From Marsupella aquatica (Eukaryota > Plantae > Marchantiophyta), in NCBI GenBank assembly GCA_973895155.1, contig OZ316895.1, positions 4,963,181-5,027,180 of the forward strand: a stretch of 64,000 bases of DNA. Direction: 5' to 3'. Both the position numbers and the translations under genes were made by a program. Positions 7,385 through 61,015 of this stretch are shown piece by piece. Every line of letters starts with the position of its first letter. Position 1 is the first letter of the stretch. The notes beneath the pieces are model-generated. The model was not told the DNA's origin. It saw only the letters and a list, made by a program, of their open reading frames with translations, and searched no databases.

Positions 7385-7742
7385 ATAAAAGGCGTAAGAG
7401 AAACAATCGTACTGAAATCAAATCGAAAACCGGCGGGATGCCAAGATCGGCCGGGAGCATCTAACGAATCACTGTGTGAATCCCGTGTACGGAACTGACG
7501 AGCACTGTCTGAGCTCTGTCAACAGCGATTCAAGAAGAACTGAAAACCCACAAAGAAAGACATGCCCTAAGTAAACAAAGTCCTGGCGTCACACTAACAA
7601 GCGTGTTTGCTTCAAGAACGTCTTGCATTTGCTATAAGAACATGTCGCTAACTCAAGTAGTACACTAGCCCTAACTACATACCTAGCGGGCATGCGAGGG
7701 ACATGTCGATGTGCATAAGAGGCATTGTCCCTCTGCATGACA
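7385..7742 (-). repeat. Terminal repeat segment 'A' (5' end) of copy A1
   Basis: Matches 45202-45558, 62763-63121 and 25612-26611. Begins TGTCATG on the element sense strand. Confidence 0.9.
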
Positions 7743-25437: not shown

Positions 25438-26789
25438 TGTCGTGACATATAGTATCGTAGCCATAGTGTATCGAAAAATACAAGTCACCGGCAAGGCATA
25501 TGTGCAAGCTGCTAGCAACCAACATGCATAGAAAAAGTCCCATCACATTTACAAGTGCCAAGAAAAAGCAAATGAGGTGGTATGTAGTAGTGGAGGTGTA
25601 AACCTCTGTATATAAAAGGCGTAAGAGAAACAATTGTACTGAAATCGAATCGAAAACTGGCAGGATGCCAAGATCGGTCGGGAGCATCTAACGAATCACT
25701 GTGTGAATCCCGTGTACAGAATCGACGAGCACTGTTTGAGCTCTGTCAACAACGATTCAAGAAAAACTGAAAACCAACAAAGAAAGACATGCCCTAAGCA
25801 AGCAAAGTCCTGGCGTCACACTAACAAGCACATTTGCTTCAAGAACGGCCCAGACTTGCTACAAGAACATGTCGCTAACTCAGGTAGTACACTAGCCCTA
25901 ACGGCCCCATTCACAATTGGGTGTACCTCGTAGGAACCACTTTCAGGACTCAAAAACATGCTTTTTTAGTGAAAAATAACTTTCGTAACATGGAAAAAGG
26001 TTCATCATGATTTTATGTCAAGACATTTAAGTCTAATTTTTTCACAAGACTATTTTACATGGCGTAACCTACCTCACCATGTAGATACATCAAGTTTTCA
26101 ACTATTTTAAGGGATCCTTTTATTGATGGCCCTAAATAAGCCAAAATTACTAATTATTTTTGTCCTATACATAAAGATTTAGTGTGTGTCACTATTTAAG
26201 TTTTGAAATATAAGATTATGCTATTAGTATGCATGCTTTGGTAAAATTTCATTGTCTAAAATGCATTTTTTAGAGTCCTTTTGAGTCCTGAAATGATGTG
26301 ACCCATTGCGTGACAAGTTCTTTTATCAATCTTTGAAGGACATATAAAGAAAGCTTCAAAGTCTCAAATGCTAGATAGTTTAATGAATGTTACCAACCTC
26401 TAGGATGTTTATTAAGTATAGTACATCAAATTTTCTATATCATCTCCTTACACCCTAAAAATGATATCCTAAAGCATAATAAACTATGGTCACTTTTGAG
26501 TGTGACGTTCCTTTTGGGTCCTCCAATTGTGAATGAGGCCTAACTACATACCTAGCAGGCATGCGAGGGACATGCCAATGTGCATAAGAGGCACTGTCCC
26601 TCGGCATGACAGCTGTCGTGACATATAGTATCGTAGCCATAGTGTATCGAAAACATACAAGTCACCGGCAAGGCATATGTGCAAGCTGCTAGCAACCAAC
26701 ATGCATAGAAAAAGTCCCATCACATTTATAAGTGCCAAGAAAAAGCAAATGAGGTGGTATGTACGTAGTGGAGGTGTAAACCTCTGTAT
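25438..26789 (-). repeat. 3' split-repeat block B1-GC-A2-B2 of copy A2
   Basis: 25438-25611 repeats 26614-26789. 25612-26611 (minus the MITE) repeats 45202-45558. Junction TGACA-GC-TGTCG at 26607-26618. Confidence 0.92.
25903..26540. mobile_element. 638-bp AT-rich MITE (PIF/Harbinger-like) inside repeat A2
   Basis: 18-bp TIR GGCCCCATTCACAATTGG / CCAATTGTGAATGAGGCC (1 mismatch). Flanked by TAA(C) on both sides. Absent from the other A segments. Confidence 0.85.
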
Positions 26790-29700
26790 CCCCCCAGACC
26801 ACAGCCAAAAGGAGGGCTGAAGAAAAATCAGGTAGCATGTGGAGCACAGGAAGGGCAAAACCATAACCCTTCTGGCACCTGGGTAAGTTCAGGCCGAAGG
26901 TAGAAAAGATGGTACCCTCCATTGCAATTGTCACACAGCAGCATCTGGTCAGCATCATCAATTCGTAAACACACTTTGCAAGGGTAGTCCACAGGTGGAA
27001 TCCAAGTAGAAGTCACAATGGTGGGATCCAGATTAGGCAGATGACAAGGGGCGCAATTCTTGGCATTGTCAGCAATTGTGCGCCCATTTGCCCCTTGTAA
27101 CTCTAGCACTCCAGATGGTTGAATAGCTTTAACCCTGAGAATCGTATGACTGGTAGAGGTGTCTAGGGTGTCGTTAGCTTGCCGCTGCAAGTACACAAAA
27201 TCTCCCACATCAAAATTCCTGACCTTGGGCTGAAAAGTGCCCCCTCATGTGTGTGCATAATGCAGTGTGTCCCTGTCTTGTGCAATGGCCAAATTCTCCA
27301 TGGCCATGGGCATAACTCTCCTGAATAGGGCAGCCCTCTCAGAGATCACATCAGACCAAGTCACAGCTGAATCCAAGTCCACCACCTGAAGCATGTGAGC
27401 AGCAATAGCAGAAGGTGGAACTGGGTGACGACCAAACAACAAGAAGTAGGGAGAAAAGTTAGACAGTGATGCATGTCTGAACATCCTATACCCCATGGCA
27501 ATGTAGGGTAAGGCCAGATCCCAATCCTCCTTGTTTTTGGTGAGGCAGATCTTTCGGAGGCCCTTCTTGCATGTCTGAACTATGCGCTCTGCCAAGCCAT
27601 CTGCCTATGGGTGATCTCGTGATGTCCAACGATGATCAATGAGGGCCTGATCAAGCAGCTCCTGGAACTCTCCTCTAAACTTTGAGCCCTGGTCAGTGAG
27701 ACATTCTGCACAAGCTCCAAAGCGGCTGAGAACTTGTTGCAAGAATGCCTGGCTGGTGCTACGGGAGGTCTTATCCGGCAATGCCACAAGTTCTATCCAC
27801 TTGGAGAAATGCTCTATCATGAACATGATGTAGAGATTACCCCAAGACGTGAGGGGTAATTCTCCAGCCAAATCACATGACCAGCAATAAAACATGCCCT
27901 GAATAGGGAGTGGATGAAGTGTGGGTTGCCGAGATGTGAAAGAAGTCCTCACCCTATCACATTGTTCACACCGGGCAATAACATCTCGAACCTGGCCATG
28001 CATGCCTCTCCAATGATAATGAGGGACCAAGAGGCTGTAAGTCCTCTTAACGCCAAAATGACCAAGCTCATAATGTACCTTACGGATAAGGCCAACCCTC
28101 TCATGAATGGGTGGAACCACCACTTCCCTGTTTGGCAAGCAGCGCACGAGATGATCTCCCTTCCACAAGTAACGCTTGGACCTTTGCTGAATTTGGTCTC
28201 TCTGGGCAGTAGTAACATGTATGGGGTACTCCCCATGCTGCAAAAATCTTAGAGTGTTGTTGTCCTCCCATATGTCCACCACAAGTTGGTCAACAACATA
28301 GCATGGCAGCAAAGCAAGATAGGTAGATGCATGAAATGTAGGCAGGATGGAAACCTGGTCAAAATCCTGTCGTGCATCTGAGGAATCATTAGAGGCAATC
28401 AAAGGGCTGCGGGACATAGTGTCAGCATTTTGATGTGTCACACCAGGCCTATGAATTACCTCAAAATCATACTCTTGGAGTATGAGCGCCCAACGAGCAA
28501 GCTTGCCATTAAGCTTGTCGTTGGTCATCAACCACTTCAAGGGCTGGTGGTCGGTGTAGAGAACAAACCTAGTCCCATAGAGGTAGGGCCTATAATGTAT
28601 GACAGCCCACACAACAGCAAGACATTCACCCTCATAAGAAGAATAATGACTCTCTACTTGATTGTTGCTCCTGGATGCATAGGCAATGACGTACTCTTTA
28701 CCTTCCTCATCATGCTGGCCCAGAATGGCACCAATCCCAAGGGCACTCCAATCTGTGTGTAGCACAAAGACCTTGCTGAAATCAGGTCTTCTAAGCACCG
28801 GGTATTCTGAGAGCTTCTCCTTCAAAGTGGCAAATGCTGCCTCAGCATCTGTACTCCATGTCCAAGTCACATTCTTTTTCAACAAAGAGTACAATGGATG
28901 TGCAATGGTACTGAAATCTTTGATGTAAATCCGGTAGTAATTGCACAACCCAATAAAGCTCCTAAGAGTGTGAACATCAGTAGGAGTGGGCATTTCCAAG
29001 ATGGATACCACTTTGGCCCAGTGAGCCATGGTTCCATTTGGAAGAATGCGGTGCCCAAGGTATACTACTGATCTGACAGCAAATTCACACTTCTTGGGAT
29101 GTATCTTTAGGTTCACCTTCTTAAGCCTCATGAATAGCTCCTCAAGGTCAAGTAGATGTTGGTCAAATCCTTTGCTGTGGACCAACACATCATCAATGTA
29201 GCATTTCAGAAACTCAACACCTTGAAGAACCTGGTCCATGACTCTTTGAAAGAATATGGGCGCATTCTTCAAGCCAAATGGCATCACCAACCACTCCCAT
29301 AGTTGGTTATTACCATGGAAAGTTGTTTTCTTGCGATCCTTTGCAAGCAGCAAAATTTGGTTGAAGCCTTGCCTTAGATCCACAAGAGTGAAGATGTCTG
29401 AGTCTCCAATGCTATCAAATAGCTCGTCTGGCTGCGGCATGGGGTACCTATCCTGGGGTGTGACCAGGTTCAATGGCCTGTAGTCCCCACACATGCGCTT
29501 CTCTGTCCACAATCCACTGGAATTCTTCTTTGCTGGCATCACTGTAGCTGCTACAAATCTGATGTAGATGGCTGAATAAGACCAGCTTCATAGAGCTCTT
29601 GGCACCTCTCATCCACCAGCTACCACTCATGCTTACTCAAACGGTGTCTCCGCCTGAAGATAGGTGTTTCATCAGCCAACTCAATGGAGAACTGCATAGT

Positions 29701-30162
29701 CTTGCACTTACCCAAGTCCTTCATAGAGAAAGCAAACACATTCTCATGATTGCTTGAGGAGCAAATTCAGCAGCTGGTCCTTCTGTCTTTTACTCAGGTG
29801 GTTGCCCATGATGAATGTGTAGTTGGCAACACTAGGAATAGGACCTGATGTACTCGTGCTTGAAGAACCAGAAGTGCTAGCCTCTCTACTGTCCAAGCTG
29901 CTAGCATGCTGCTGATAAGGTGATGAGGCCTCGCCAAGGCCTGTTGTACCTGCTGATCTGGGTTGGTCCACACCATGAAACTCAGAAATAATGTCAGCCA
30001 CATTACAAGGGACCTCCTCCCCCCAACACTTGGCTTGAAGCGGTGAGTGTTGAATAGAGGTAAGTGCACCTGGTCTGGATGCCATGTAACAGCACCATGG
30101 AGTGGTAGGGCTGGAACTCTAGATGCTGAATGAATGTACATCTGAAAAAGGATGCAAGTTAC

Positions 30163-31103
30163 CAGAAGCCAAGTGAGAGCATTGAGATCCATTACCCTGC
30201 CAAGTAAAGCATTCCTGGCCAACCTGGTGATTTTGGTGTGACATGTAGTACCGGGTTGGAAGCCCATACCCCGTTCTCTCTCCTCAGGACTAGGTTCATC
30301 CCATGTACCGGTAGAATGTCGATAAACCAGGCCAGGACCATCACCCTGAAAAGCATGTGCACCGGGAAAGGATACAAATGTAGGCCAAGCAGCACGGGGC
30401 TGTCCAATGGTATTGGCTGGATACCAAGGTGCTGGCTCTTGCCGTGTAACTGGTTGGCAAGAACTGTCAGGATCCAAAATCTGGTCCACTATGAGGTTAG
30501 TGTCCCTGGATGTGTGGTGAAGAGCTAACTCCAACAAGGAAGGTGGTGCAAGGTTAGTCCAAAAGTTACGAAGATGATGTGCATAAGAACCACAGTGCAT
30601 TGCATCAATGAGAAGGGGTGGTCCCAAGTAGTGTTGGACCACACTGAAATCCTCTTTGACCTGTGGACGCTGGTCAAACTGAGATGGAGTATTCTCAATG
30701 ATATAACCAACAGCAGGATAAAGGGATTGAGCCTAGGTGAGAATCTGAACCAATGCTGTGAAAAGGCCAGAATGAGAGTCATGCAATCCAGCACCATGAC
30801 CAGCAGCTGAAAACCCTTGGCATTCCCAACCAGCTATGATCAAATCAAGGGAACCAAGAAGGGTTAAGTGTCGGTGCTGGACAAGCTGGATATCTGGAGG
30901 GAAGAAAGAAAATGCAGACTTCCATGCATTGTGTGGAAACTGCTGAGGAAATCGTTCTGAAAATTCTAGCAGACGAGATTCAGCCACTTGCCTTGCACCT
31001 GGATCAATGTCCACGTAGATGTACTGCTTCACCACCATGCCGGACTGTAGAAGAGCTTCCAGGCCTGTAGAAATGCCACCAAAAAGCTCAAGCAATGTAA
31101 GGC
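30163..31103 (-). other. DNMT3-like methyltransferase domain of A2
   Basis: LLELFGGISTG, IIAGWECQG, ENTP, AHHLRNFWTN, ERERGMGF, RNALLGRVMDLN. In-frame stop near 30733. Confidence 0.88.
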
Positions 31104-33923
31104 CATCCAGAGCAGGAGTCCATGTAACTGGTGCGCTCAAGATTGGGGCTATTGGCTGTCCATTGTGCTGCCCAAGGTCTTCAAACTTGCGCAATGCAGC
31201 CACCAAAGATCCATGGGCTGCTTGGAGCCGTTGTACCACCTCTGGTTGATGATCCACGTTGCTGGAAAGTGCTGCTATACGTGTAGCAGCATGTGCAGCA
31301 ACCACCTCATCGTCATCCTCCTCAATCCAATCCTGCAATGGGTGGTTGACATAGGTAGCTGTGTGCACTGCTTTCAACACACAGTGGTGAGCCATAGGTG
31401 TATGGGCACCATGCAAATCAAGTGGAATGTAGCCCAAGTGTGAGCCATCAGTATGCCAATCAACTCTGTAGTATGCATGCTCATGCCAGTTGTCAATGGT
31501 AAAACCTGGTGGGAACAAAGCCTCCTGGCCAATGAGCACATCATACGTAGTGGCATTGGTAACCAAACATCTGACTGGGAAATGCAATTCCTGATCTGTA
31601 CCTCCATTAAAAGTGAGAGTGAGTAAAGTAGAACTCTCACCCAGCACATCCTCCACAGTGCCACTAGCAGTCCAAATATGCTACCTGGATTGCTATAAAT
31701 GATCAGTCAGCAGTCCCATCTTCTTGGCAAACTGAATGCCCAATATCACTGGTTGAGCGCCTATGTCTAGCATGACCACCTGAGGAGTGTGACCCTCCAA
31801 CTTGACCGCTGAATTCCTGTTATCAACAATGGCAATGGTGGTGGAAACTGAAGTCTTGTCGCTAGGCACCACTTTTGGCAGATGATGAGGTACCTTGTGA
31901 AGGGAGTTAGTATCCATGGTCTTTCCACTCAATAGCATAGTCAGGAAAGATGGAGTAGCATGAGCAGAATCCAGTGTAGCTCTGGTCACACAATCTGCAG
32001 CAATACTATCATCGCTACCACTGGAAATTGGTACTGGGATAGCCAAACCAGTGGAAGCATGTAATGGAGAAGAAGAAGGTCCAGTATGTACATGAGATTG
32101 GACCTCCAAAACCGGTGTCACAGGGGCTGATGAAGAATGCAGTGAGCCCTCTAGCGCTCTGATGACAGCTCTAGCATCCAGCTGTAAATCATGGCAACTG
32201 AAAAGTGGAGTTGTAAGAATCCTTTGTGCCATACCGGAGGTGAAATGCTCAAGCAGCTCAGGAGAAACAACTCCCTGTGAAATGTCAGCAACACCTGGTG
32301 GTGGAATGGATGTAGCTGTAGCTCCCTCCCCCCTTGCCAACAAGGTGCGCTCTTCAGCAAGTGTGAGTGGCTGAAAGGATTGGGGCATGACAGCCCGAGC
32401 TCCCCTGGCTCTAGTCATAGGACCAGCAGCAAGACCATCATCCTGTACAATGCGGCGGGTGGGAGCAGTACGGGAAGCAGCACTGGCCTGCTGGTAAGCA
32501 AAATAGGAAGGGCAGAATGAATCTGAAAATTCTGCCGTAAGGCCAGGCTATGTAGCAGAGGACAACACACACTCACCCATATGAGCATCAAATGGCAAGC
32601 CATAGAAAGAGCGGGGTAGAGGTGCTGAACTGTCAGTGGTGCCTGAGCCAGGGATGGGTTGCACGTGACCAGCCGGTTGAGAAGGACCAGCAGAGGCAGT
32701 TGACTTGCCTTTGATATTGGCAAGTTGGGCACGTAAGGACTCAACCTCATGAGTTAGAGATTGAAGTTGAGTTGCCTGTGCATTGTGAGCCTCCTTCTGA
32801 GCTGGTTACTTCTGTTGCTGCTTGGGCAATTTGTTGGCACCAGGTGCTTTGCCATTGGAAGGAGGAGCAGTTGATGCAATAGGAGCCCTCCTAGCTGGTG
32901 GGGGAGTGGAAACAGGAGCAGGATGAGTGGCCTGTTGTCGTAGCTGCTTCCTCTCTGGGAATTTGGCAAAACAAACTGCTTCCAAGTGACCCACTTTCCC
33001 GCAAAAATCACAAGACAGATCCTCAACAACAATATCACATTCATTAGCCTTGTGATTGGGGTTACCACAGTAGTTGCAAGATGGCAGCATGAAAGCAACA
33101 TGTGCTGGCTTGGTTTTGGAACCGTATGGTGGCACACGGGAAGGGGTGGCCAATGTAGGGGCAGCAGCCTGGTACCTGGATCGCGGTGGACGCGCAATAC
33201 TGGCCTCATAATGTGCATGGGCCAACTCAAGTTTGTCAGTAGTGTCATAGACATTGAGCAATGTGTAGCTGTCTCCAAACTCTGAGAATACTTGCTGCAA
33301 CACTTGCGAATGGAGAGCTGGTGTGCCCTCCAATGCACGAAGATAGCGATGCGCAGCCTCCAGGTCAGTGATGCTCTGGGTGTCCTCCTTCAGCTTGAGA
33401 AGCCGGCGATACATCATCTTCAATGTTTCATCGCGTTGCCTCACAAAGGTAGCCAACTGCATGATTTTGGCAGCACTCTTGATTGGGAATTCCAATTCAA
33501 GAACCTGGAAAAACTCAGCCATTGGATCAGCAAAGGCAGGAGAATCAATAGTGGGAGAAATGCCTGATGTAGCCTGTGCCAAGACAGTGGGAGTTGTCAC
33601 ACCATTCTGAGTAGTGTAGTAGTATATCGTGCTATTAGAGTATGTACGTTTGGTATGAGTGCTATTGGAGCCGATAAGGTTCTGTCAGGTTTGTGTGAGA
33701 GGGTACTTCTCACTTGTGAGGCATTGAAAGGTCATCTTTCAATGTTGAGCCTTGGAGAGAGAGGAGCTTGAGTGTGGCTATGGTGGCTGTGAGCTCCGCT
33801 TGTGTAACGTGGATTCCTTGAGTAGTGCAAGGTGCGTTGGCTTGACATACATGTGTGATCGGATCGGTGCGGGATCGATGGGGTATTGTTGACCGAGATC
33901 GTTGTGCCGATTGTATGGAGATT

Positions 33924-33935
33924 ACATTGAAAGAT
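33924..33935 (+). promoter_or_regulatory. Putative self-priming primer-binding site of element B
   Basis: ACATTGAAAGAT directly follows repeat A1 and is the exact reverse complement of ATCTTTCAATGT at 33734-33745 inside A1. There is no TGG-type tRNA PBS. Confidence 0.7.
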
Positions 33936-36900
33936 CACATTCGAAATCTGTTGTACGGACTGTGCGGACAGAAGTTCGATTGATTGAGTTGTCGACGGTT
34001 CGTGGTAGCTCGGATCGTGTGTTGTTATCGAACAGATTGTTGGTATCTTGACCTGTATCGTTGTTGTCCGATCGGCCTGCTTCCCGATCGATGTACAAAT
34101 CTGTGATTGGTGACAGGTTTTGAGTTGGAGGTCGATTGATGATTCGTGGAGGAAAGCGAATGTTGAGTAGATGTTGGACAGTGGAAGTCGATCCGTGAGG
34201 CTTCAGATCCGATTGCCGGCTACTGTGAGGCTTCAGATCTGATTGTTGGCTACTGTGGGGCTTCAAATCTGATTGCCGGCTATTGTTGGACGATGTTGGC
34301 AAGGCGCAGGTGAAGCGATGGCTCTTTTCCTGAAGGAACGGAGCTGCCAATGCCCCGTGCGACGGTATCATCATTTCAGTGAAAGAAACGAGGGTCAAGG
34401 GTGTTGAATCAAGCTGCTGCCAATTCTGTGGAAGGGCTGCGTTTTTCATGAAGGAAATCAACAGTTTTCGGGAGCTTTTCGTGAAGGAAGTAGTCGTTTT
34501 TGGGGTTAGGTGTGAGGCGCACGAGGTCACCCATCCCGAAAGTGCTCACGCGAGGCGACGCGTGAGGTCACCCATCCCGAAAGTGCTCCCAACCGCGAGC
34601 GCGAAGTCACCCATTGCGAGCGCAGGCAGGCGTGAGGTCGAGGTCACCCATCCCGGGGCTATTCCGGGCCGTGAGCGCGAGGGGAGGCACAAGGTCGAGC
34701 GCGAGGAGGTCACCCATCCCGGGGCTATTCCCAGCCGCGAGCGCTTAACTGGCAAGTTCTCATCCCACCTTGTGTACACACAAGCTTTGACAACTTGTTG
34801 TTTAGATTCAAGCGCCAGGGGGCTTTATACACTTCCCGGTTTGTTTAGAGGCCTATTCTAGGCCAAATCAGAGGCTGTTTGAGGGTTTTTGATACTTCTG
34901 AGTCCATCTAGACTCACAGATTGAACCAATTTTGCCTTGGTTCTCATCTACAACATTGGAGTGCCATTGTGAAGCCTATTATGAAGGCTCTTCCTTGAAC
35001 CTTATGCACATTGTCATATTGATTTGCATTTGCTTTTGTGTGGAGAGTTGAATGGTATCCATTCTTGTTTCTGGATCCTCTTCACACATGTTTCCTGTTT
35101 ATGCGCCATGTTAGTTTCATGTGGGCGCTTGATTCCATAGGAGTGATCCGGGTTTGCAACTGGACATTCTAGTGTGCTGTGTATTTCTCTCTTGGTGATG
35201 TTGGAGTGATGCCCAACACACCATGGTGAGTGCTTGTGGTGCTGACAGGGATAGATTGCCCTTAGGGTTAGCACATAGATTAGGTTAGGGTTGGTCACCA
35301 CGGATTCTTCTGGTGCTGCTGGATTACCCGATGGACGACGGACCGGTTTCACTCGGAGTGGGGCACAGTTTCGGCCAGCGGCATTGGTAGCAGTCAGCAG
35401 TGCAGCTTCAGACAGTGATTCTGATGAGGACTCAGTGACCAGTTCTCCTCATCATCAGGTGGTTGCACCTTTGTTGTGGGATATGGACGAGATGTACGGG
35501 GCTACAAAGGGCCCACGACGATACTCTGGTGCAGTTGGCACAATTGATCTGGATGACTTCATCCAGGAGTTTGATACGTGGTGCGATATGCAGACATTGC
35601 GTAATGTCACGTTGTTTACCCCTTTCATGGCATGGAAGGGATTATTCCAACATTTGGAGGGGCCACCCATGGATGACTACCATGAGTTTCGGAAGGCTCA
35701 TTTGGTTGAGATTGAGGCATGGAGGCAGCATTGGTCACCTAATTACGTGTCCATCACCTATGGCACTAGTGTGGCTGCCCAACCAATTGCCACAGCTGCT
35801 GCTTCTTCTAGCAGCACTAGCCAGAGTGGCACACCATCCACCAGCAGCACTCCAGCAGCATCCACCACTACTCTTGCCGGTGTGATTGTGACAGGAACTA
35901 GAGTTGCGCCAGCATTTAATCATGTGGTGGAATTCTTTGAGGTACTGAAGCAGAACTATCAGGGTGTGAGAACTGATAAGTTGAAGGGTCTTCAGGAGTT
36001 CCAACGCAAGACTGGAGAAAGCCTACGTGAGGCATACACACGTATGCGCAGATTGATCACTGTCACCAAGGGAGTGACAGAGGCTCAGGCAGTCCAATTT
36101 TGGTATGCAATTCTGGACAGAGAATTGCGACGCAGAGTGAGAGATGTCACTCTGCTTAGGGATGCAGATCCCACATTAGCAGTTGTTTTCACCCTTTCTG
36201 AGCGCATTGAGCTCAATATGGTGAATGAGAAGGTGGTGACTTCCGAATTTTCCAAGGAAGCACCAAAGGCTGCATCTACATCCACACTAGAAGCCTACTG
36301 CACGAGAGTCTACCAGCCAGAGACCTGTGCCCTCTTATGTTGGATAGCAGTCAGGATGTTGGACCTGTGGTGGGGATCATGCACAGAGATATTGTCCAGA
36401 TCATAGAGGATCAGGGGGAGCATCAGCGCCTGATCAGCGACAGTGTGATCACTGTGGAGCTCCTGGACACACCAAGGATAGGTGTTTCTCACTCCACCCT
36501 GAGTTACGGAGAGGAGGATCCCGTACACATGATCAGGGAAGAGGAGGAGGAGGTAGAGGTGGTGGACGTGGTCGTGGCATGCCACATGCAGGGAGACAGG
36601 GAGGTGACGCTACCCCTACTGTAACCATAGATCCAAAGGATGCTAAGATTGCTCAATTGGAGCAACAACTAGCTGCCATGGCTAGTTCCCAGGTGAGACC
36701 TAATTCTGGTGATGGGGCATCTACATCCTATGGACCTTCCACATCCCATGGTCCTTCCACATCTTATGGAGCTGATGGAGACCTTGCCACCATGGGATTC
36801 ATGTATGGCACTGCACATATTGATGCATCAGCAGCTTTGACACGTGGGGCAGCCAAAGCTCTTGAGCCCCGAGGAGCAGTAGTGGAGTTAGATCCACAAA

Positions 36901-38117
36901 GGGGGGATGCACGTCGGCAGACAAAGCTTCCTCAGTCTTTTACATTGTCAGAGACAGTTCAGACTGCCTCTATGAACCCGGTTCGGACAAACCCTGATGT
37001 GGGTAAGTTGGCAAAATCAGGTAGTGATGCAGCAGGGATGACAGGTACCTTGCTGGGGGCGGCTACTGCCATAGTACGCACCCCATTATTTTCAGCGACA
37101 GACATGCTGAACTTGGGAGTTGGTCCTGCAGAAGTGTTCAGATTGGCAGCTACACTCTGTGAGGACACTCCAGTGGTTGCTTCCCATGCAGAAGCAATTT
37201 GCAGTGTTGATGCAGTGAAGACCATGCCACCTATTGCTACTAGTGAGACATGGCATGCAGCAACAACGAGGTTGGTGGATTTACCAGCACGCCCTGCATT
37301 TGAGAGGACTAGGTTTAAACCTAGTGTTGTGTCATTGGATAATCGGAGTGGTATCTTCCGATTAGTTGGGCCTTCTGGAGCAGTATACCAGCTAGAGAGA
37401 GTGTTATTGGATACTGGTGCTCAGCCCTTGATGTTGGGGAAGTCTGCCATACGTGGATTGGGATTGCGTCCAGAGGATTTGGAGGATTGTCCCTTTCCCA
37501 TTCAGACTTCATTGGGGGGACCTACACCTACACAGCATATCACCAGGAGACCACTTGATTTGAGGATTCAGGAAGGTCATACCACAGATAGCTCACAGAT
37601 ACAGGCGCGAGCTATTCTGACTAAGGCAGAGTCATATGATGTGTTGGTGGGATGTACAGTGCTCTACCCCATGGGATTTATTCTTGATTTTTGGGAGGAA
37701 TCAGTGTCATATAGACCTGATTGGCAGTCAGGAGATGCTCGATTGAGCAAATTGCCAGTGAGATTTAGTGGACCTATGGGAGGCCCTAAATCCACACCAT
37801 TGTCTTTGGCAGCATTCAGTGGTGTAATTGCTGGACCTGATGATTTGATTGAGGGTAATACGCATGCAGCCGATGTTCCACCATTGGAGGAGTCTCATGA
37901 GGAGCACATCATGCGAGGATTACCTGTTGGCAATGTTGTGCCACCAGTGTGGGGCACTGCACAAGCCTTGCCACAGGCAACAGCACGATTGGTACATGAT
38001 GCATGGCGTCATGCTTTTACACCACAGTCAGGAGCAGAGCAGTCTCTTGCAGATGGACCTGTGACTCTTTCACCATTGGATACCACTCCTATTGCTTGGC
38101 AGTATCCACCGGAGGGT

Positions 38118-39060
38118 ATTTGTTGGTTGGATCTTTTTGGTGGGATTAGCACTGGATTGGCTGCTATTCTTCAGGCAGGAATTCCTGTGCGTCGTTATTT
38201 GTATGTGGAGACAGATGAGACAACACGGAGGGTCTCATTACGACATGTGGCTATGTTGGTGGATAGATATCCACAGTTGCTGCCAGTGGATGCTGTTCGT
38301 GGTTATCAGCATGCACTACCTGCTGATATTTCATTGTTGGGGGCGGATCATCTACATCGTGTTGGCCCCATTGATTTGGTGATTGCTGGTTGGCCATGTC
38401 AGGGCCAATCTAGAGCTGGCATTGGGCATGGACTTCATGATCCATGCTCTGCATTGTTTTGGGAGATGTTACGGGTGTTGCGTCACCTCCAGCTACATCA
38501 GACACAGTCTCCAGCATACATTTTGGAGAATGTGCCATTGTTAGGTGATGATCGTAGTCGGATTGTTGCCAGTGTTCACCAGGTGAGGTCTTGGATTGGA
38601 CCTGCTGTGTTATTGGATGCTGCATGTGTGGGTTCTCGTGCACATCGTCCACGCTTGTGGTGGACTAATTTGATCCCATGTGAGGTGCTGAAGCGTGCAT
38701 TTGACAGCATTCCACGCTCACCAACCTTAGTGGTGGATAATATTTTGGATCCAGGGCGTCGTGCACAGGGTGTGACCCAACCTGATAGACCTCCATTGGC
38801 AATGGTCAATGCAGTTGGGTGCCCACGTTGTGCATTACCCACTCTTGTTAGCCACTCTACTTCATATGCATTCAGAGCAGGTGGCCCTGGACTTGTATGG
38901 GACACAGCTCTCCAGCAGTTAGTGGAGCCTACTGCTGATGAGAGAGAGCGTGCTATGGGATTTTTGACTGGCACCACTGCAGTTGCCTCTGTGTCAGAGG
39001 GTTTGCGGCGCCAGGTTCTTGGTCAAGCAATGGATTTGAATTGTTTGACTTGGATTATTA
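38118..39060 (+). other. DNMT3-like C5 cytosine methyltransferase domain of element B (uninterrupted)
   Basis: WLDLFGGISTG (I), YVETD (II), VIAGWPCQG (IV, catalytic PC), YILENVP (VI), AHRPRLWWTN (VIII), ERERAMGF (IX), RRQVLGQAM (X). Confidence 0.92.
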
Positions 39061-42000
39061 GCTTGGGAGTAGCTGAACAGTTGCGGATGCGCTCTGCTGG
39101 AATTACTGATTGTCCCTTGGTGAGCTTGCGGTCCACTGAGACAGTATTCACCACAGCTGGGGGCGAGCAGACAGTCCATGGACCTATGACAGGATTGGCG
39201 GCTGGACAGACTGTTGAGCAGGAAGGGACTACTCAATCTACTACTAAATAGCAATCATCGGCTATCTCTTCTACCCTACAAAGAGATATTAGGGATTTGG
39301 TGGAGAGTTGGGAACCACAGCTTGGCCCTAAGTTAACAGGGGAGGAGAGACGTTGCATGCATCGATTCCTGAAGAGTTATTGGAATTGTTTTGCATTCAG
39401 CATGAAGGATTTGGGGACATTGAAGGGCCCTGGTATTCAGATTGAATTGGCTAGTGATGCGCCAATCTTTCATAGACCATACCGTTATAGTGACATGGAG
39501 AGAGCTCTGATTCAAAGCAGAACTCAAGATTTGTTGGAGGCTGGATTGGTGGAGATTTCATATGGGGAGTATGCATCTGCCACAGTGATGCTAGCCAAGA
39601 AGGATGTGCAAGGCAATTACACAGATAGGCGCATGTGTGGTGATTATAGACCTATTAATCGCCAGACAAAATCTGATCGATATGCCATGCCCACACCTGA
39701 GGAGATCTTTGATGCTGTGGGGCATGCAAAGGTTTTCAGTTCATTGGATCTGAGGGCAGGATACCATCAGCTTCCAATTAGGCATGCTGACAGGTCCAAG
39801 ACAGCATTCTAGGGGATTGATTCTTATGGCAAAGATCGTTTGTATCAATGGTTATTCTTACCATTTGGGTTGAAGAATGCACCAGTTGAGTTCCAGAGAG
39901 TCATGGATCAAATCATTGCAGGTTTGGATTTTGTTAGATGTTATATTGATGATATTTTGGTCTATTCTTCTACTGTGGAAGAACATCAGCAGCACTTGCA
40001 GACTGTGTTGGAGAGATTGAGAGCACATGGGTTGAAGCTCCATCCTAGCAAGTGTAAGTTCTTCCAAGACCAGATTGAGTATTTGGGCCACACCATATAC
40101 CCAGGGGGATTGGGTGTACAGCAGACTAAAGTGGAGGCCATTACACAGATTCCTTGTCCTACTGATGTGAGTAGAGTTCGTGCATTCTTGGGATTGGCGA
40201 GCTACTACAGGAGGTATGTTAAAGGATTTAGCCAGCTTACTAAACCTTTGACCATACTCACTAAGTTGGATCAGGAATGGATTTGGGGTGATGACCAGGA
40301 GCATGCCTTTCAGGAGTTGAAGCAAAGGTTGGCATCATCCCCTATTTTGAGAAGACCCATTTCAGGCAGACCATTTCAGCTACACACTGATTGGAGTGGA
40401 GTAGGACTTGGAGCAGTGCTGACTCAGAAGGATGATGAGGAGAATGAGTTTGTTGTGGCTTATGCCAGTAGATCAAACAATTCAGCAGAGGCTAAGTATA
40501 GCTCTTATGAGGGAGAGTGTTTGGCAGTAGTGTGGGCTGTTGCACACTTTCGTTGCTACTTGTTTGGTAACCCCTTCACCTTGATCACTGATCATCAGCC
40601 TCTTAAGTGGTTAATGGAGTCTGACAAGCTTACAGGGAAGCTTGCACGATGGGCATTGTTGTTACAGGAGTATGATTTCCAGGTGGTGCATAGGCCTGGA
40701 AAAGTGAACTTGGATGCAGATGGATTAAGCCGCAATCCATGTACCAGTCAGCAGGATGAGACTGGAGCCAGATGGCATGATGAGTCAGATAAGGAGATGG
40801 TGCCAGGATGGCATGCATCTGCCTTTCTTTGTTGGGTGCCAGCATACAGTGGATCTATGGACTCTACTTCATTGGATGGAGTGGGTGATGAGTCTTCAGA
40901 TGTGGATGTTGGTGAGGTAACTTCTGGACAACAAGATATTCACAATGATGTGAGAGTGTTGGAATATCTGCGCAATAGTTCTATTGTTGGCAGTGTTGAT
41001 GCCAAGGAACGTGACAGGGTTCTACAGAGAGCCAAGAGGTTTCGATGGGAGGGAAACCATCTTTTGAGAGTACTGCATGATGGTAGGATGTTGGTGGTAC
41101 CAAAACCATCACAACGAGTACATTTGGTGCGACATGCGCACGAGGAGTTGGGTCACTTTGGTGTGAAGCGCACTTACAGCTTGCTGCAGACGCAGTATTG
41201 GTGGCGTGGTATGCACACTCATGTCCAACAGTTGATAGCTAAGTGTGTGGTATGTGACAGAGTGAGAGCATCATTTAATGCTCCCACTCCCCAGTTGCAC
41301 CCGTTATCGATCATGGGTTTGGGATATCGTTGGAGTTTGGATTTTGCTGGTCCATTACCTCTTACCCAACGTCATAATCGGTATGTTTTGGTCATGGTGG
41401 AGCACTTCTCCAAGTGGATTGAGCTAGTGGCGTTGCCAGATAAAGCCAGTGGAGGAGTTGCTGCTACATTTTTGGATCGTGTACTCAGTCATTTTGGAGC
41501 ACCAGCTGAGGTGTTGACTGATCAGGGAACTGAGTTCCGTGGAGAGTTTGAGAGTTTGTGTGAACAAGCTCTGATTGATCATCGCACTACCTCTTGTGAT
41601 CATCCTGAGGCAGATGGATTAGCTGAGAGAGTTGTGCAAACTGTGAAGAGAGGATTGCGTAAGTATGGCTTGCAGGTTGGTCATCTGGGAGATTGGGATC
41701 TCCAACTACCTTGGTTAGCTATGGGCTACCGTTTCAGTCGGCAAGCATCACTTGCATCCTTCTCACCCTACTTTTTGCTCTATGGTAGAGAGCCAGATTT
41801 GCCAGCAGCTATTCGTCGTCATGCTGCACTAGTTGTGAACTTGGATGATCCTGATGTTTGGGTCAAGGTGTGTTCAGAGAGAGCACGGGTATTTCAGAGA
41901 GTGATGCCCATGGCTTTTGACAACCTTGCCATTGCCCAACATCGTGATACTTTGAGGTATGCCACTATTCGTGGAGGAGGTTACCGTGCAAGCATTCGAC

Positions 42001-42236
42001 GATTTCATCCTGGTGATTATGTTTATTTGCAGCAGACAGCACCCACGACACTTGATGTGACCGCAGGCCGGATAATCTTACGTGTGCGTGAAGTGTTGCC
42101 TTCTGGTGTCCTGATGTTGGAGGGACGCGATGGTATGGTTTGGAAGGATCATGTGCGCAACTGTGCACCATGTCACCTTCCCAACATTGATGGTACAGTA
42201 GATCCAAGCTTGGCACATGTTCGTGCTGGCTTGAAA

Positions 42237-42377
42237 TGTATGTTGTGTGGATCTGCTCAGGGAGCAGCTACTATGTTGATTTGTGATAAGTGTTCTAGAG
42301 GATGGCACATGTCATGTTTGACACCACCATTGCAGGTGATTCCTAGTGGATCATGGTTGTGTCCTCAGTGTCGGTGA
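42237..42377 (+). other. PHD finger at the integrase C-terminus of element B
   Basis: CMLC...MLICDKCSRGWHMSCLTPPL..IPSGSWLCPQC, a C4HC3 pattern. Confidence 0.92.
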
Positions 42378-42550
42378 AGCCGACTAGTTATCATTTGTGT
42401 TCTCTTGGCAGATATGGATTGCAGGTAGGTGATCGATGGGGCTCACTTGCACCCGGCCTCCTGATCTTCACACCTAAAAAGGTGTATATCAACCTTGTAG
42501 AACTCATGGCTAGCTAGAGTTAGAGGACCTTACTCCCAGCTAGGGGGGCG

Positions 42551-43157
42551 ATTGTGGGTTTTGGACATGTGTGGACATGAGTTCCACTTGTATTCCATTC
42601 TCTTGTATTTGTGATGTGGCAGTGTGACTATGTCTGGATGTATGTGACAAGCGATGTATGTTGTGTAGCGATATGTATGCGCACGACAGCTGTCACACCA
42701 TTCTGAGTAGTGTAGTAGTATATCGTGCTATTAGAGTATGTACGTTTGGTATGAGTGCTATTGGAGCCGATAAGATTCTGTCAGGTTTGTGTGAGAGGGT
42801 ACTTCTCACTTGTGAGGCATTGAAAGGTCATCTTTCAATGTTGAGCCTTGGAGAGAGAGGAGCTTGAGTGTGGCTATGGTGGCTGTGAGCTCCGCTTGTG
42901 TAACGTGGATTCCTTGAGTAGTGCAAGGTGCGTTGGCTTGACATACGTGTGTGATCGGATCGGTGCGGGATCGATGGGGTATTGTTGACCGAGATCGTTG
43001 TGCCGATTGTATGGAGATTATTGTGGGTTTTGGACATGTGTGGACATGAGTTCCACTTGTATTCCATTCTCTTGTATTTGTGATGTGGCAGTGTGACTAT
43101 GTCTGGATGTATGTGACAAGCGATGTATGTTGTGTAGCGATATGTATGCGCACGACA
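42551..43157 (+). repeat. 3' split-repeat block B1-GC-A2-B2 of element B
   Basis: The 138-bp B1 (42551-42688) equals B2 (43020-43157). The 329-bp A2 (42691-43019) equals A1 (33595-33923), with about two substitutions seen by eye. Confidence 0.95.
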
Positions 43158-45189
43158 GAGTAACTGGCGCAGTGGTAGGAACTGGAGTAGGAGGGGAAGT
43201 AGTAGGAGCAGCAGCATGGGCTGCAATGGCATTCTGTAATGCCAGTTGTGAGGCAGCTGCAATTGCACTAGCATAGGGAGGATTAGGCAATTGTGTGACA
43301 GCAAGCAACCGTTGAGAGTGCTGCTCATACACATCGAAAGCCTCATGGTGCACATACCTGGCTAGCTGCTTAAATGCAAAAGCATTTGTGAAATTGCTGC
43401 CGTACTTCAACTCCAATTTGTAAATGATAGTGTAGAAAGTGGATTTGAACTCACGCAAAGAAACAGTGCCTGGCCGCCCACTGAAGCGCTCAATGCGGCT
43501 AGATGAGTGACTGGCATCCATGCTGTATGTCGGTGAAGCTAGAACAATCACTGATGCAAAATTGCCGAGACTCCAATGAAATGGGCACCAACGGTCGTGG
43601 ATCACTCCGTAAGTGGTACCTGGGCGTTGGTGGCGATGAGCTGCTACCTCCCGGCTCGTTTGCTGACATGCTATGTGACAGTACCCAAATTGTGCAAAAT
43701 GTGTAAAGACTAAGAAAACCCGTCACTGTCAAAAAACCGTCAGGGAAAACGGACCCTTAAAACCTCAAATGTACCCGTGTTGTGCTTGCCGGAAAGACCA
43801 TTTGATGTGTATGCCGGGCCCTCACCGTGATGCAGATAAAATGTGGTGGCATCAAAGAAATCCGGGAAGAATAGGCCCTTAAACGTGAATAGGCCCCCCC
43901 CACCTTAAGTGTATACACATCCGGGCCCCATTGTGGACCCGGAAACTGCAGCCGGACCGGCCGAGTGTGTATACACGCTCGTGGCACGCTCCCTATGCAG
44001 CGGTAGTCGGAAGGCGTCGAAAAGAGGCGAGGAGGTACTATGACCGGCGAGGGAAAGAAATGGGAGGCAACTCGTGAAGGCAGCGGCCGAGGCGAGGCAA
44101 GGCGAAAAGGAGAGAAGTCGGCAGAAAAGAAACAGGCCCCTCTTAAGTCGAGGGGGAAGGAAGGAAAACGGTCAAAAAAGGGAAAACCGGGCACGATGCC
44201 CTGTGCATTGACAGTCGATGGTGAAGGGCGAGGCAAAAGAAAACCGGACCCTAATTAATTCGGGCCAGCACTTGAGGCGAGGCAGGGCGTTCAGAAAGAA
44301 AGGAGCCCCTGACGTGAGCCCTCCATAGGGCTTCGTGCCCCCCCAATATGAGCTCCCGAATAGACGGGGCTACGAGCTCCCCTCCCCTCCTGAAAGGTTC
44401 TGTGGGCCTCGTGCCCTGGTGAAAGTGTGACTCCCGAGAGAGGGAGTCAAATGTACTCCCCTCCTCCCTTAAATGCTTCATAGGGCCGTGTGCCCTCTCC
44501 TTGCGCTCCCCCCTCCCCTCTTTTAATGCTGTATTGGGCTTCGTGCCCTCTCCTGGCAGTCGCTCCCCCTCCTCCCTGCTTTCGCTTGTACTTGGCTCCC
44601 CCCTGCCCCTGCATTAATGCATAATAGGGCCTCGTGCCCTCTCCATGCTTGTGCCTCAACTTAATCCCCCTTCCCTACTGTGTAATTGTTGGCAACAGGC
44701 GAGGGAGGAAGAAAAATGCCGAAGGGAGGGCGCACGGCCCTATGCGCGACCCAGGGCAATGATGAGCCCCGCATGTGTATACATAGGGGAGGCAGCTCAC
44801 GACGGTAGCTGCGAGGGGAGGCAAAATGAAACGACGGCCGATGACAGAAAAGAAAGAACGGGACCCCAAAGGGTCGTCAAAACGTAAGGGGAAGGGAAGG
44901 TGGTCGCGCTGCGACCGGAAAACACCGAATATGGCCCGAAAAAGGTCGTGGCAGTCAGCAGTCGGCAGCCATAGTCGAAAGCAATTATGGAAGCAGATCG
45001 AGTTGCGGCTGGCAAGAAAAATCCGGGCCCCTTGTTATGTGTATACACTTAAGTATACACATAACACCACCATAAACCCATAACTTTTAACTCAACACTC
45101 CGATGTCCGTCGAAGAAATTGCAATGGCTTCACCAGAAATTGTCGAGATCATCACAAGCAATCTTCTTCCCCTCACCACTATCTCGACG

Positions 45190-45201
45190 AGTTCTTCTTG
45201 A
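45190..45201 (-). promoter_or_regulatory. Putative self-priming PBS of family A
   Basis: Plus-strand AGTTCTTCTTGA abuts repeat A and is inverted-complementary to TCAAGAAGAACT at 45347-45358. The same pairing occurs at 62751-62762/62908-62919 and, with 1 mismatch, in A1. Confidence 0.7.
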
Positions 45202-45558
45202 ATAAAAGGCGTAAGAGAAACAATTGTACTGAAATCGAATCGCAAACCGGCAGGATGCCAAGATCGGCTGGGAGCATCTAACGAATCACTGTGTGAATCC
45301 CGTGTACGGAACCGACGAGCATTGTTTGAGCTCTGTCAACAGCGATTCAAGAAGAACTGAAAACCAACAAAGAAAGACATGCCCTAAGCAAGCAAGTCCT
45401 GACGTCACACTAACAAGCACATTTGCTTCAAGAACGGCCCATACTTGCTACAAGAACATGTCGCTAACTCAGGTAGTACACTAGCCCTAACTACATACCT
45501 AGCGGGCAGGCGAGGGACATGCCAATGTGCATAAGAGGCACTGTCCCTCGGCATGACA
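45202..45558 (-). repeat. 5' repeat segment A1 of copy A2
   Basis: Matches 25612-26611, 7385-7742 and 62763-63121. Confidence 0.92.
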
Positions 45559-52300: not shown

Positions 52301-53671
52301 ATATGACTCTAACTTGTAGCACGTTGGTTTGGGTGCAAAGTTGATTGATTTAAGAGTGGGATCAACATTTTCGTGCAGCTCAAGCCAATGTCAATGGAGA
52401 CATAATGCCTAAGGTCAATTCACATAGCAAACAACCAATATTACTATCATAATGATTCTTCTTAGCACTACATATTGTATTCTATCTTCTAACAATGCAA
52501 GGTCACAAAATTGCCTTGAAACCTTAGAGACAATCAACTGCTGAACTACTCAAGTCATTATATTTGGACTACAGCAGCACCACCTGCCAAGTAGAATCAA
52601 TCTTGGGCCATACTCCCATCCCGGAGCTAGGGAGGGCTCAAGACCAAATACCAGAATCAATCTCAAGATACTCTGTTCCCTAGCACCAGCTCAACTAACT
52701 ACCAAAAACAATTCTAACCTTGTGGGCAATTGCATTAAAGTTCACATTCCTTTGTATTCTTGCCTCATTTTTACTCATCTTAATAATAACTAAAGCAAAA
52801 CCTTTTTACTTCTTTCCCAACAATCATGGTGTACATGGCTCAATTGTTTTTGCAAAACGCCTCCACAAAAGGACTGTCTCCCTTTGAATTGTTGCCCAGC
52901 AGCACCCAACGCTAGGGTAGTTGGGTGGGAAACTAATTTTAGAATATTAATAAACCCAAGGCGCAGTTTTTTGTTTTTTAACGTTAGTTGATTTGGGTAT
53001 TGGATGACACTATACTAGACCACTAAAGTGCCATGGGCACTCAATTTGAGTTGAGAAGAGTACTTTCTCAACTAAGATGAATTGAAAAGTTAACTTTGCT
53101 TTTCTCCTCACTTTTCTCAACAACGAACACTAAGCTTGTTGAATTATGACATCTTCCTTCATGATGATCCAATCATTACTCATACCATGCACACGTAGTC
53201 GACACAATCTCTACGTGGTTCACCTCTTCTCCAAGGCTACGTCCACACGACCACAACAACTTTACTTCACAATAGTCGAACACACAAGCTCTCTCTCTTC
53301 CTCAAGTTGCTTCGTTACAATGAGCAAGCGGGTGAGCAAGCACCACACACCAACGGCTTACACTAGCCCTGGTATATACAAGGTCACAAATGACTAACCT
53401 AACCTTAGCTAAATCCCTAACTGTGGTTAGCCTAAGTGCCGTAACCTATGATTCACTGTCGTGACATATAGTATCGTAGCCATAGTGTATCGAAAACATA
53501 CAAGTCACCGGCAATGCATATGTGCAAGCTGCTAGCAACCAACATGCATAGAAAAAGTCCAATCACATTCCCAAGTGCCAAGAAAAAGCAACTGAGGTGG
53601 TATGTACGTAGTGGAGGTGTAAACCTCTGTATCCCCCCCAGACCACAGTCACAAGGAGGGCTGAGGAAAAG

Positions 53672-59600: not shown

Positions 59601-61015
59601 GGTTGCTTCTGTTGCTGCTTGGGCGGTTTGTTCACACTGGATGCTTTGCCACTAGAAGGAGGAGCAGTTGATGCAGTAGGAGCCCTCCTAGCTGGTGGGG
59701 GAGTGGAAGCAAGAGCAGGAGGAGGGGCCTACTGTCGTAGCTGCTGCCTCTCTAGGAATTTGGTAAAACAAACTGCCTCCAAGTGACCCACTTTTCTGCA
59801 AAAATCACAAGACAGATCCTCAGCAACAATATCACAGTCATTAGCCTTGTGATTGGGGTTACCACAGTAGTTGCAAGATGGCAGCATCAAAGCAGCATGG
59901 GCTGGCTTGGTCTTGGAACCATACTGTGGCACACGGGAAGGGGTGGCCAGTGTAGGGGCAGCAACCTGGTACCTGGATCGCGGTGGACGTGCAATACTGG
60001 CCTCATAATGTGCATGGGCCAACTCAAGTTTCTCAGCAGTGTCATAGACATTGAGCAGGGTGTAGCTGTCTCCAAACTCTGAGAATACTTGCTGTAACAC
60101 TTGCGAATGGAGACCTGGTGTGCCCTCCAATGCGCGAAGATAGCGATGAGCAGCTTCCAAGTCAGTGATGCTCTGGGTGTCCTCCTTCAGCTTGAGAAGC
60201 CGGCGATACATCATCTTCAAGGTTTCATCGCGCTGCCTCACAAAGGTGGCCAATTGCATGATTTTGTCAGCACTCTTGATTGGGAATTCCAATTCAAGAA
60301 CCTGGAAAAACTCAGCCACTGGATCAGCAGAGGCAGGGGAATCAATGGTGGGAGAAATGCCTGATAAAGCCTGCGCCAAGACAGTGGGAGTAACTGGTGC
60401 AGTGGTGGGAACTGGAGTAGGAGGGAAAGTGGCAGGAGCAGCAGCATGGGCTTCAATGGCATTCTGTAATGCCAGTTGTGAGGCAGCTGCAATTGCAGTG
60501 GCATAGGCAGGGTTAGGCAATTGTGTGACAGCAAGCAGCCGTTGAGAGTGCTGCTCATACACATCCAAAGCCTCGTGGTGCACATACCTGGCTAGCTGCT
60601 TAAATGCAAATGCATTTGTGAAATTGCTGCCGTACTTCAACTCCAATTCGTAAACGACAGTATAGAAAGTGGATTTGAACTCACGCAAAGAAACAGTGCC
60701 TGGCCGCCCACTAAAGCGCTCAATGCGGCCAGATGAGTGACTGGCATCCATGTTGTATGTCGGTGAAGCTGGAACAATCACTGATGCAGAAGGAGTAAAG
60801 GGCAGAGAAGCGATAGCAGGCTTCGGGGTAGTGGTAAAGCGACCGCCAAATGTAGCAGAAGGATTGCGTGGTGTGGGTGCTGCTGCTGTCTGCTGGCGTC
60901 GTCGAAATTGCCGAGACTCCAATGAAATTGACACCAACGGTCGTGGATCACTCCGTAAGTGGTACCGGGGTGTCGGTGGCGATGAGCTGCTACGACTCGG
61001 CTCCTCTGCTGACAT
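53672..61015 (-). pseudogene. Disrupted gag-pol of copy A3
   Basis: ORFs 59729-61057 (Gag), 58309-59157 (PR), 57189-58260 (DNMT pieces), 55215-57110 (RT/RH), 54594-55157 and 53723-54634 (IN, PHD). Multiple stops and frameshifts. Confidence 0.9.
57005..57925 (-). other. DNMT3-like domain of A3 (frameshifted)
   Basis: LLELFGGISTG, IIAGWECQG, YIIENTP, AHRLRNFWTN, MGFQPGTT, RNALLGRVM. Confidence 0.87.

Follow-up and report, generated by a model that had tools for sequence, protein, structure and literature searches.

Element B is a Ty3/Gypsy retrotransposon at 33595..43157 of the window, by which we mean the whole 64,000-nucleotide stretch of Marsupella aquatica contig OZ316895.1 analysed here (positions 4,963,181 to 5,027,180, forward strand). 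Its ends are built from two split direct repeats, A and B, and it reads to the base GAGT|A1–int–PPT–B1–GC–A2–B2|GAGT, with int the internal region, PPT the polypurine tract and GAGT the target-site duplication (TSD). This layout is a family trait found across the clade; a misassembly or a local accident can be dismissed because a second family in the window and 27 loci share it. Taken as a whole, the evidence is probably best explained by a Ty3/Gypsy element whose complementary DNA (cDNA) has its tips end-joined and whose integrase cuts internal CACGACA-NN-TGTCA palindromes, NN being a two-letter spacer. The core of this explanation, namely that the cDNA tips are joined and that integrase cuts at internal sites, is held with high confidence.

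All parts of element B lie on the + strand. The left GAGT (33591..33594) precedes A1 (33595..33923, 329 bp), which opens with the left integrase-type end TGTCAC and would comprise the 3' part of U3 together with R and U5. At the other side of the internal region the PPT, a G run at 42542..42550 whose position is the same in relatives, abuts B1 (42551..42688, 138 bp), which ends in CACGACA and is the putative 5' part of U3. A GC spacer (42689..42690) separates B1 from A2 (42691..43019, 329 bp), leaving an uncut internal attachment (att) junction, CACGACA-GC-TGTCACA, at 42682..42697, the core of which, GACAGCTGTC, is a perfect palindrome. A2 runs into B2 (43020..43157, 138 bp) at 43019..43020, where the end of U5 meets the start of U3; this A|B join is precise in element B and is the putative scar of cDNA end-joining. 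B2 closes with the right integrase-type end CGACA and is followed by the right GAGT (43158..43161). Two mismatches in 329 bp distinguish A1 from A2, and B1 and B2 are identical over their 138 bp.

The insertion point lies in the gag gene of another retrotransposon, copy H2 of a Gypsy family referred to here as host family H. The GAGT duplication is genuine, as two paralogous host-family copies in the window show the empty site with one GAGT, and the empty-site joint (33590 to 43158, with four shared letters) was present in contigs of 4/4 public runs. The coordinates of the A1...B1-GC-A2-B2 layout, the TG...CA ends and the 4-bp TSD given in the initial annotation of this DNA were right. The public (Logan) contigs are too short to phase B-A-PBS (PBS, primer-binding site) against B-A-B, with none of those listed spanning the whole B-GC-A-B block, and their summed depth is no copy number; they yield neither form counts nor a test for the mirror form described below.

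Ends were compared across 80 metagenome loci, the best 80 of 507, which are short-read contigs from few data sets and not independent genomes. Five were duplicates; the 3' end was readable in 52 (27 long, 23 short and two ambiguous, L015 and L024) but not in 23, and 18 of the loci together with three window copies made up a set of 21 copies with both ends. Eleven of these have the long form A-int-B-NN-A-B and ten the short form A-int-B, and the 3' ends number 29 of long type and 26 of short type. Every 5' end seen (24/24) is A followed by internal sequence, with A+B at 0/24. Neither the mirror form, with A-B-NN-A at the 5' end, nor B-NN-A at both ends was found among the 21 both-end copies (0/21 each), and the latter result agrees with the earlier prediction that B-GC-A would never bound an insertion with a TSD on both sides. 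All 21 copies begin T(G/A)TCA, and 18 carry a 4-bp TSD (14 exact, four with one mismatch) of varying sequence; the duplication is absent in L006 and L034 and unreadable at the damaged end of L053. The short form, also predicted beforehand, is seen in window copy H3 with a TSD and in nine loci, seven of them with a TSD. Long forms persist to about 10% repeat divergence. In public contigs the sequence beyond the B end varies (12-21 contigs at each place, with an agreement of 0.39-0.46), as does that preceding the start of A. One further locus, L002, reads int-B-NN-A-int and was considered as a mirror form or a circle; it may be a collapsed assembly and was not counted. Three viral-contig loci at about 42% identity had no split repeats and were uninformative for the layout.

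The signals for reverse transcription are found at positions that define a different repeat unit from that bounded by the TSDs. The PPT abuts B in every family, and in 18/23 5' ends the 12 nt after A are complementary at 10.5 or more of 12 positions to a site inside A, compared to 0.5% of control 12-mers. In element B this predicted PBS (33924..33935), directly 3' of A1, is 12/12 complementary to 33734..33745, the predicted self-primer and, with an inferred start site, the predicted first 12 nt of the transcript. The primer and PBS sequences differ between four families (ACATTGAAAGAT, TCAAGAAGAACT, TCTAGAAAAACT and A(C/T)TCAAAGAACT), and a fifth family, that of L002, has a similar pair. In locus family 1 the primer site is preceded, at a distance of about 30 nt, by a TATAAA-like box. 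A fold beginning at 33734, made with no shuffle control, pairs the primer with the PBS, and nothing was seen in a fold of 33736-33960, which starts 2 nt inside the primer (z -0.87). No tRNA-type PBS follows A, and there is no tRNA gene in the window. The signature is that of Tf1-type self-priming, as described in passages of PMC4600332 and PMC6317226. Because the PPT precedes B and a predicted self-priming PBS follows A, the LTR (long terminal repeat) defined by reverse transcription is B-NN-A, as the initial annotation had proposed in the form B-GC-A. The transcript is predicted to start inside A and U5 to end where A ends, so that the cDNA would be [B-NN-A]-int-[B-NN-A].

These positions bear directly on whether element B could be a conventional Gypsy element, with A+B as its LTR, altered by rearrangement, deletion or misassembly. 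A2+B2 does read TG...CA like a normal 467-bp LTR. However, the PPT stands before B and the PBS directly after A, A+B is missing from all 24 5' ends, the TSDs match the unusual ends, and the layout recurs in the second window family and in 27 loci of other assemblies. Ordinary A+B LTRs at both ends, raised by the initial annotation as the arrangement that most copies might have, occur in 0/21 both-end copies, and a pair of full LTRs with att sites at the tips set by reverse transcription is likewise found in 0/21. The family data already refute this reading, and we give it almost no credence.

The B-NN-A junction is conserved as a CACGACA-NN-TGTCA(T/C) palindrome. Its spacer is 2 nt in 29/29 cases (27/27 loci and both long window copies, 2/2), and the spacer letters are GC or G>A/C>T derivatives in 26/27 loci. 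Less constancy was seen at the A|B join, which among 20 family-1 copies was precise in 11 and altered in nine; seven of the altered joins had lost or gained 1-3 nt, and two (L019, L042) had large deletions of about 145 and 220 nt ending at the join. AT/AT microhomology is present at this site. As an imperfect control, no indels were found at eight A1 ends and 20 B1 starts (Fisher p 1e-4), and single public contigs list deletions ending at 43010, 43017 and 43018, which lend weak support. The earlier suggestion that the A2/B2 join is a ligation fossil is in keeping with this scar-like variation (9/20) beside constant control ends.

The same small changes at AT/AT microhomology would also fit end-to-end template jumps, in which reverse transcriptase (RT) passes from the right tip, once that is complete, to the left one and integrase then cuts the internal sites. 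The deletions in L019 and L042 look more like resection, and a jump by itself leaves the missing mirror form unexplained. We therefore regard this route as improbable.

Repeats within a copy also resemble each other more than expected. Own B1/B2 pairs in 18 copies shared 159 minor variants, compared to a shuffle mean of 59 and a maximum of 100 in 500 shuffles, and own A1/A2 pairs in eight copies shared 180, compared to 61 and a maximum of 141 in 1000 shuffles. No fixed difference between B1 and B2 was found. Because own-copy B1 and B2 share more minor variants than any shuffle, B2 appears to be renewed from B1 in each cycle and not inherited separately, and gene conversion could contribute. 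At the right end of locus family 1 (L006-L071), B closes with a tandem run of two to three CACGACA-like units, and in some copies the end lies at the penultimate one; this right end was seen in L061 with an exact TSD and, unverified, in L053, L040 and L005. As these few right ends fall on the penultimate CACGACA, the left and right ends may be chosen separately, and deletion of a repeat unit could look the same.

Together these observations suggest the following cycle. Transcription would begin inside A1 and terminate inside A2, and self-primed reverse transcription would rebuild B-NN-A at both tips of a linear cDNA. Joining of the tips would follow, in the simplest case giving a 2-LTR circle ahead of integration. 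Integrase would always use the A that adjoins the PBS for the left end and could take the right end from either B. A right end at the join-derived B would give A-int-B-NN-A-B, which keeps the terminal redundancy for another round of copying, and a right end at the B after the PPT would give A-int-B, a predicted dead end. Site choice looks directional because the mirror form is absent, 0 against 11 long forms (two-sided binomial p about 0.001). The initial annotation had already proposed a 2-LTR circle opened at CA-GC-TG; its internal palindrome ends with 4-bp TSDs stand, the mirror form A-B-GC-A-int-B predicted from it is absent, and a random choice between the junctions does not fit unless an extra rule is added. 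Retroviral integrases can cleave palindromic LTR-LTR junctions internally, according to PMC1180852 and PMC1905944. The D-x34-E core of the integrase, described below, is a candidate feature that may play a part in internal cutting.

A symmetric version of the circle would allow either CA-GC-TG junction to be used equally, with the mirror product soon collapsing to A-int-B through A x A recombination. It expects long and short forms near 1:1, which is what was seen (11:10 among both-end copies, 29:26 among 3' ends), and A (about 270-360 bp) is about twice B (about 100-190 bp), which would ease such recombination. However, the loss would have to be complete, with no mirror form in 21 both-end copies or 24 5' ends, whereas long forms last to about 10% repeat divergence and H3 is already short with an intact TSD. 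We consider the symmetric version unlikely, although marginally better placed than a template jump.

Less unlikely than these, but still doubtful, is a route with no circle, in which integrase acts on the internal junction of the left LTR of linear cDNA and inserts both cut ends, and host end-joining then seals the chromosomal break that separates the tips of A and B. This would explain the variable join and the asymmetry together, and L023 and the join-ending deletions in L019 and L042 resemble repair products. By the retroviral scheme of reverse transcription, the left LTR is expected to become double-stranded before the right one, which would supply the bias. The route would, however, entail a double-strand break with every insertion, and 11/20 joins are exact. 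It shares its internal att sites with the end-joined cycle preferred here, and genome data alone do not separate the two.

Several observations weigh against the preferred cycle, in which joined tips are followed by directional internal cutting. The directional rule is a post hoc fit to the counts of 11 long, 10 short and 0 mirror copies, and nothing in it explains why the other A is never used. The circle intermediate is deduced from genomic DNA, and short forms could arise by B1 x B2 recombination or by collapse in short-read assembly. Three age proxies comparing 22 long with 15 short copies gave p of 0.65, 0.06 and 0.56, a weak test, with the proxy at 0.06 leaning toward older short copies. 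Locus L023 (4549-4900) passes from int-B-NN-A into unrelated DNA with no B2, possibly as an unjoined cDNA tip or through later deletion. The missing TSDs of L006 and L034 and the selection of loci, the best 80 of 507 from few data sets, are to be counted on the same side, as are the 5/23 5' ends below the self-priming threshold and the lack of an obvious TATA box before the primer site of element B. With regard to the repeats, six of the nine altered joins were judged against the family A end and not the copy's own, B2 has its own B1 as nearest neighbour in just 7/18 copies, and the likeness of repeats within a copy could stem partly from gene conversion.

The coding content of element B is that of a Gypsy element, with the domain order gag-PR-RT-RH-IN (protease, RT, RNase H and integrase), a Gypsy-type RT and Pfam matches to RT, RNase H, integrase zinc finger, rve and PHD. 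The gag part of the first open reading frame (ORF1; 35279..36406, stop to stop) has a Retrotrans_gag match below the cut-off (E 0.016) and is cut off from the rest by a frameshift near 36262-36300, seen as a change of frame compared to relatives. The remainder of ORF1 (36348..39251) encodes CCHC knuckles, an aspartic protease (LDTGA) and a DNMT3-like C5 methyltransferase, with the methyltransferase domain at about 38109-39101. ORF1 probably ends naturally at the stop codon 39249-39251, because relative P0121 terminates at the same place. ORF2 (39252..42377) encodes RT, RNase H, a DDE integrase (D-x34-E) and a PHD finger, and is interrupted by a TAG at 39810-39812. Judged by its reading frames, this copy is defective through the frameshift and the TAG.

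The catalytic residues are present (integrase D510, D570 and E605; RT YIDD), and the integrase D, D and E are invariant in 36/36 aligned relatives. The D-to-E span is 34 in all 36 aligned rows, one residue shorter than in more distant Gypsy elements: D-x34-E was found in 124 matches of the top-78 and DNMT hit sets and in three others, and x35 in 27 more distant Gypsy hits. The best PDB match of the RT-RNase H region is Ty3-G Gag-Pol (E 1.8e-79), Ty3 being nearest among solved structures. A PHD finger, and no chromodomain by Pfam, is found at the integrase C-terminus. The methyltransferase domain (PF00145, E 4e-9) has its best PDB matches in DNMT3A (E 1.3e-11) and contains PCQ and ENV motifs. 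The methyltransferase, the self-priming PBS and the shared layout of the host family were absent from the initial annotation.

This enzyme content decides against a PAT/Ngaro-type element inserted by a tyrosine recombinase in cis or trans. The A1-B1-A2-B2 order does mark PAT, Ngaro and Viper elements, according to a passage of PMC4157794. However, no Pfam match to tyrosine-recombinase families was found in ORFs of at least 100 aa on both strands of element B or in 24 other window ORFs, and the intact DDE triad of the relatives, the TG...CA ends and the varied 4-bp TSDs point to a DDE enzyme. With its RT-RNase H nearest to Ty3 among solved structures, this origin is already largely refuted and we hold it to be extremely improbable.

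Named relatives are found in Calypogeia, Riccia, Marchantia, Sphagnum, Closterium, Klebsormidium, Tetraselmis, Haematococcus and Chlamydomonas eustigma, the nearest named matches being liverwort proteins. In an RT-RNase H tree of 57 rows, which has no Tf1 reference among them and weak deeper nodes, element B clusters with proteins of liverworts and with other loci (support 98/92), three Klebsormidium nitens proteins placed among the split-repeat elements group with host family H (95/96), and a branch with support 100/96 sets apart 15 other Gypsy rows. Two more distant relatives that group with chlorophyte proteins (P0211, P0213) encode a single long polyprotein with the methyltransferase placed after RNase H and ahead of integrase, a position different from its placement before RT.

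Element B thus is Gypsy in its enzymes and PAT/Ngaro in its layout, having neither the two LTRs of the former nor the recombinase of the latter. The combination had been thought undescribed in the initial annotation, but the layout is already on record in de Mendoza et al. 2018 (PMC5890265), where the legend of Fig. 4c gives KnitGypsy-Dnmt3 of K. nitens as having Gypsy domains with a DIRS-type repeat structure and the legend of Fig. 1 gives the DIRS order as A-coding-B-A-B. As described there, the published element has in common with element B its Gypsy domains, these repeats and a polyprotein that includes a Dnmt3-like methyltransferase; element B differs in having DNMT at the end of ORF1 and RT-RH-IN-PHD as a second ORF. 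Element B probably belongs with KnitGypsy-Dnmt3, the comparison being by description, as the published sequence is not among the tree rows and the K. nitens proteins there may or may not be that element. The relevant section, legend and three supplement text files of PMC5890265 describe neither a TSD nor an att palindrome, and give no self-priming site, no short form and no model of integration. In the literature searched, 'KnitGypsy' is named in PMC5890265 only, and no mechanism, internal att palindrome, 4-bp TSD, self-priming site, short form, join heterogeneity or missing mirror form was found for this layout; Repbase, theses, figures, most subscription journals and bioRxiv supplements fell outside that search and may describe more. 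The layout is thus known from one legend line, and its remaining features were not found in the literature searched. Passages of PMC9977147 and of bioRxiv 10.64898/2026.05.21.726589 hold nothing on a split-repeat layout. Gypsy-7a_cRei, considered as a further case, has LTR subparts and a PHD finger, but the part of PMC9940879 that treats it describes two LTRs, and it was not tied to the split layout.

Canonical Ty3/Gypsy elements, including the self-priming Tf1/Sushi group and plant Tcn1, share with element B the PR-RT-RH-IN order, DDE integrase, TG...CA ends, 4-bp TSD and PPT and, in the self-priming groups, a PBS whose sequence complements part of the 5' repeat (passages of PMC6317226 and PMC4600332). 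Element B differs in lacking a full LTR pair, in having its integrase ends inside the LTR defined by reverse transcription, and in its PHD finger in place of a chromodomain, its DNMT3-like domain and its D-x34-E instead of x35. PAT, TOC, Kangaroo, Ngaro and Viper share the split direct repeats A1-B1-A2-B2 but encode a tyrosine recombinase, as listed in PMC4157794, whereas element B encodes a DDE integrase and has a 4-bp TSD; the most plausible reading of this resemblance is that the two converged on an intermediate that is permuted and end-joined. In foamy virus and HIV-1, a DDE integrase likewise cuts an internal palindrome of abutted att ends, although there the palindrome is created by tip joining and the reaction is a side route (PMC1180852 and PMC1905944). 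In element B the palindrome is a heritable part of the LTR itself and does not coincide with the join, and internal cutting appears to be the norm. Prokaryotic insertion sequences of the IS3/IS30 type form circle junctions in which two ends are held apart by a short spacer of a few bases and a DDE enzyme acts on the abutted ends, but unlike element B they are DNA elements with no reverse transcription.

A wider reading can be offered tentatively, as one slightly less likely to be right than wrong: that a green-lineage Gypsy clade uncoupled the ends made by reverse transcription from those used by integrase, and integrates obligatorily from end-joined 2-LTR cDNA by directional cleavage of an internal palindrome with a clade-specific shorter catalytic core, in convergence with DIRS/PAT elements but with no tyrosine recombinase. 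As part of that reading, the clade would span bryophytes, streptophyte algae and, by protein likeness, chlorophytes. Were it true, it would provide a natural LTR retrotransposon with the 2-LTR circle as productive intermediate. The question of whether DDE integrases can use LTR circles productively is a long-standing one, studied in retroviruses as a side reaction (PMC1180852 and PMC1905944); the present clade is a natural case where internal cutting looks like the rule, and its young, high-copy families make the question testable. If the mechanism is right, split direct repeats are not diagnostic of tyrosine-recombinase elements. Programs that search for LTR pairs would be expected to miss or mis-delimit such elements, and their share in bryophyte and algal genomes, as well as their DNMT3-like genes, may be under-counted.

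Host family H, a Gypsy-DNMT-PHD family on the - strand, is about 67% alike to element B in pol DNA, with repeats that are unrelated apart from the end motifs. Copy H2 (25438..45558) has the long layout AGTC|A-int-PPT-B-GC-A-B|AGTC, with A1 at 45558-45202, B1 at 26789-26614, the GC spacer, A2 at 26611-25612 and B2 at 25611-25438. Copy H3 (53457..63121) is the short form GTGA|A-int-B|GTGA, with A at 63121-62763 and B at 53632-53457. Copy H1 (1..7742) shows A alone (7742-7385) at its 5' end and has its 3' end beyond the window. These three copies within 64 kb are 93-96% identical, all on the minus strand and with separate flanks, which suggests local clustering of host-family insertions. The A2 of H2 contains a 633-bp AT-rich insert (25903-26535) with terminal inverted repeats and core CATTCACAATTGG, likely a non-autonomous DNA transposon. 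A self-complementary sequence of about 35 nt, of the TATACAC...GTGTATA type, follows A at a distance of about 135-170 bp in every host-family copy (7217-7252, 45033-45067 and 62570-62606) and is possibly a packaging or dimer signal. Beside H3, 53150-53456 resembles another LTR-like repeat with a CT/GA run and a TATA-like motif, and H3 may be nested in a third element.

Outside these elements, the window contains an NLR-type gene region at 8579-16680 (-), with leucine-rich-repeat (LRR) arrays of about 210-bp repeats, an NB-ARC domain, an alpha/beta-hydrolase-like ORF upstream and a second LRR fragment at 8579-9355. Pieces of host genes are found at 19960-20820 (-) and 48777-49361 (-), with a lysine methyltransferase (PF10294) and a weak CCB1 match.

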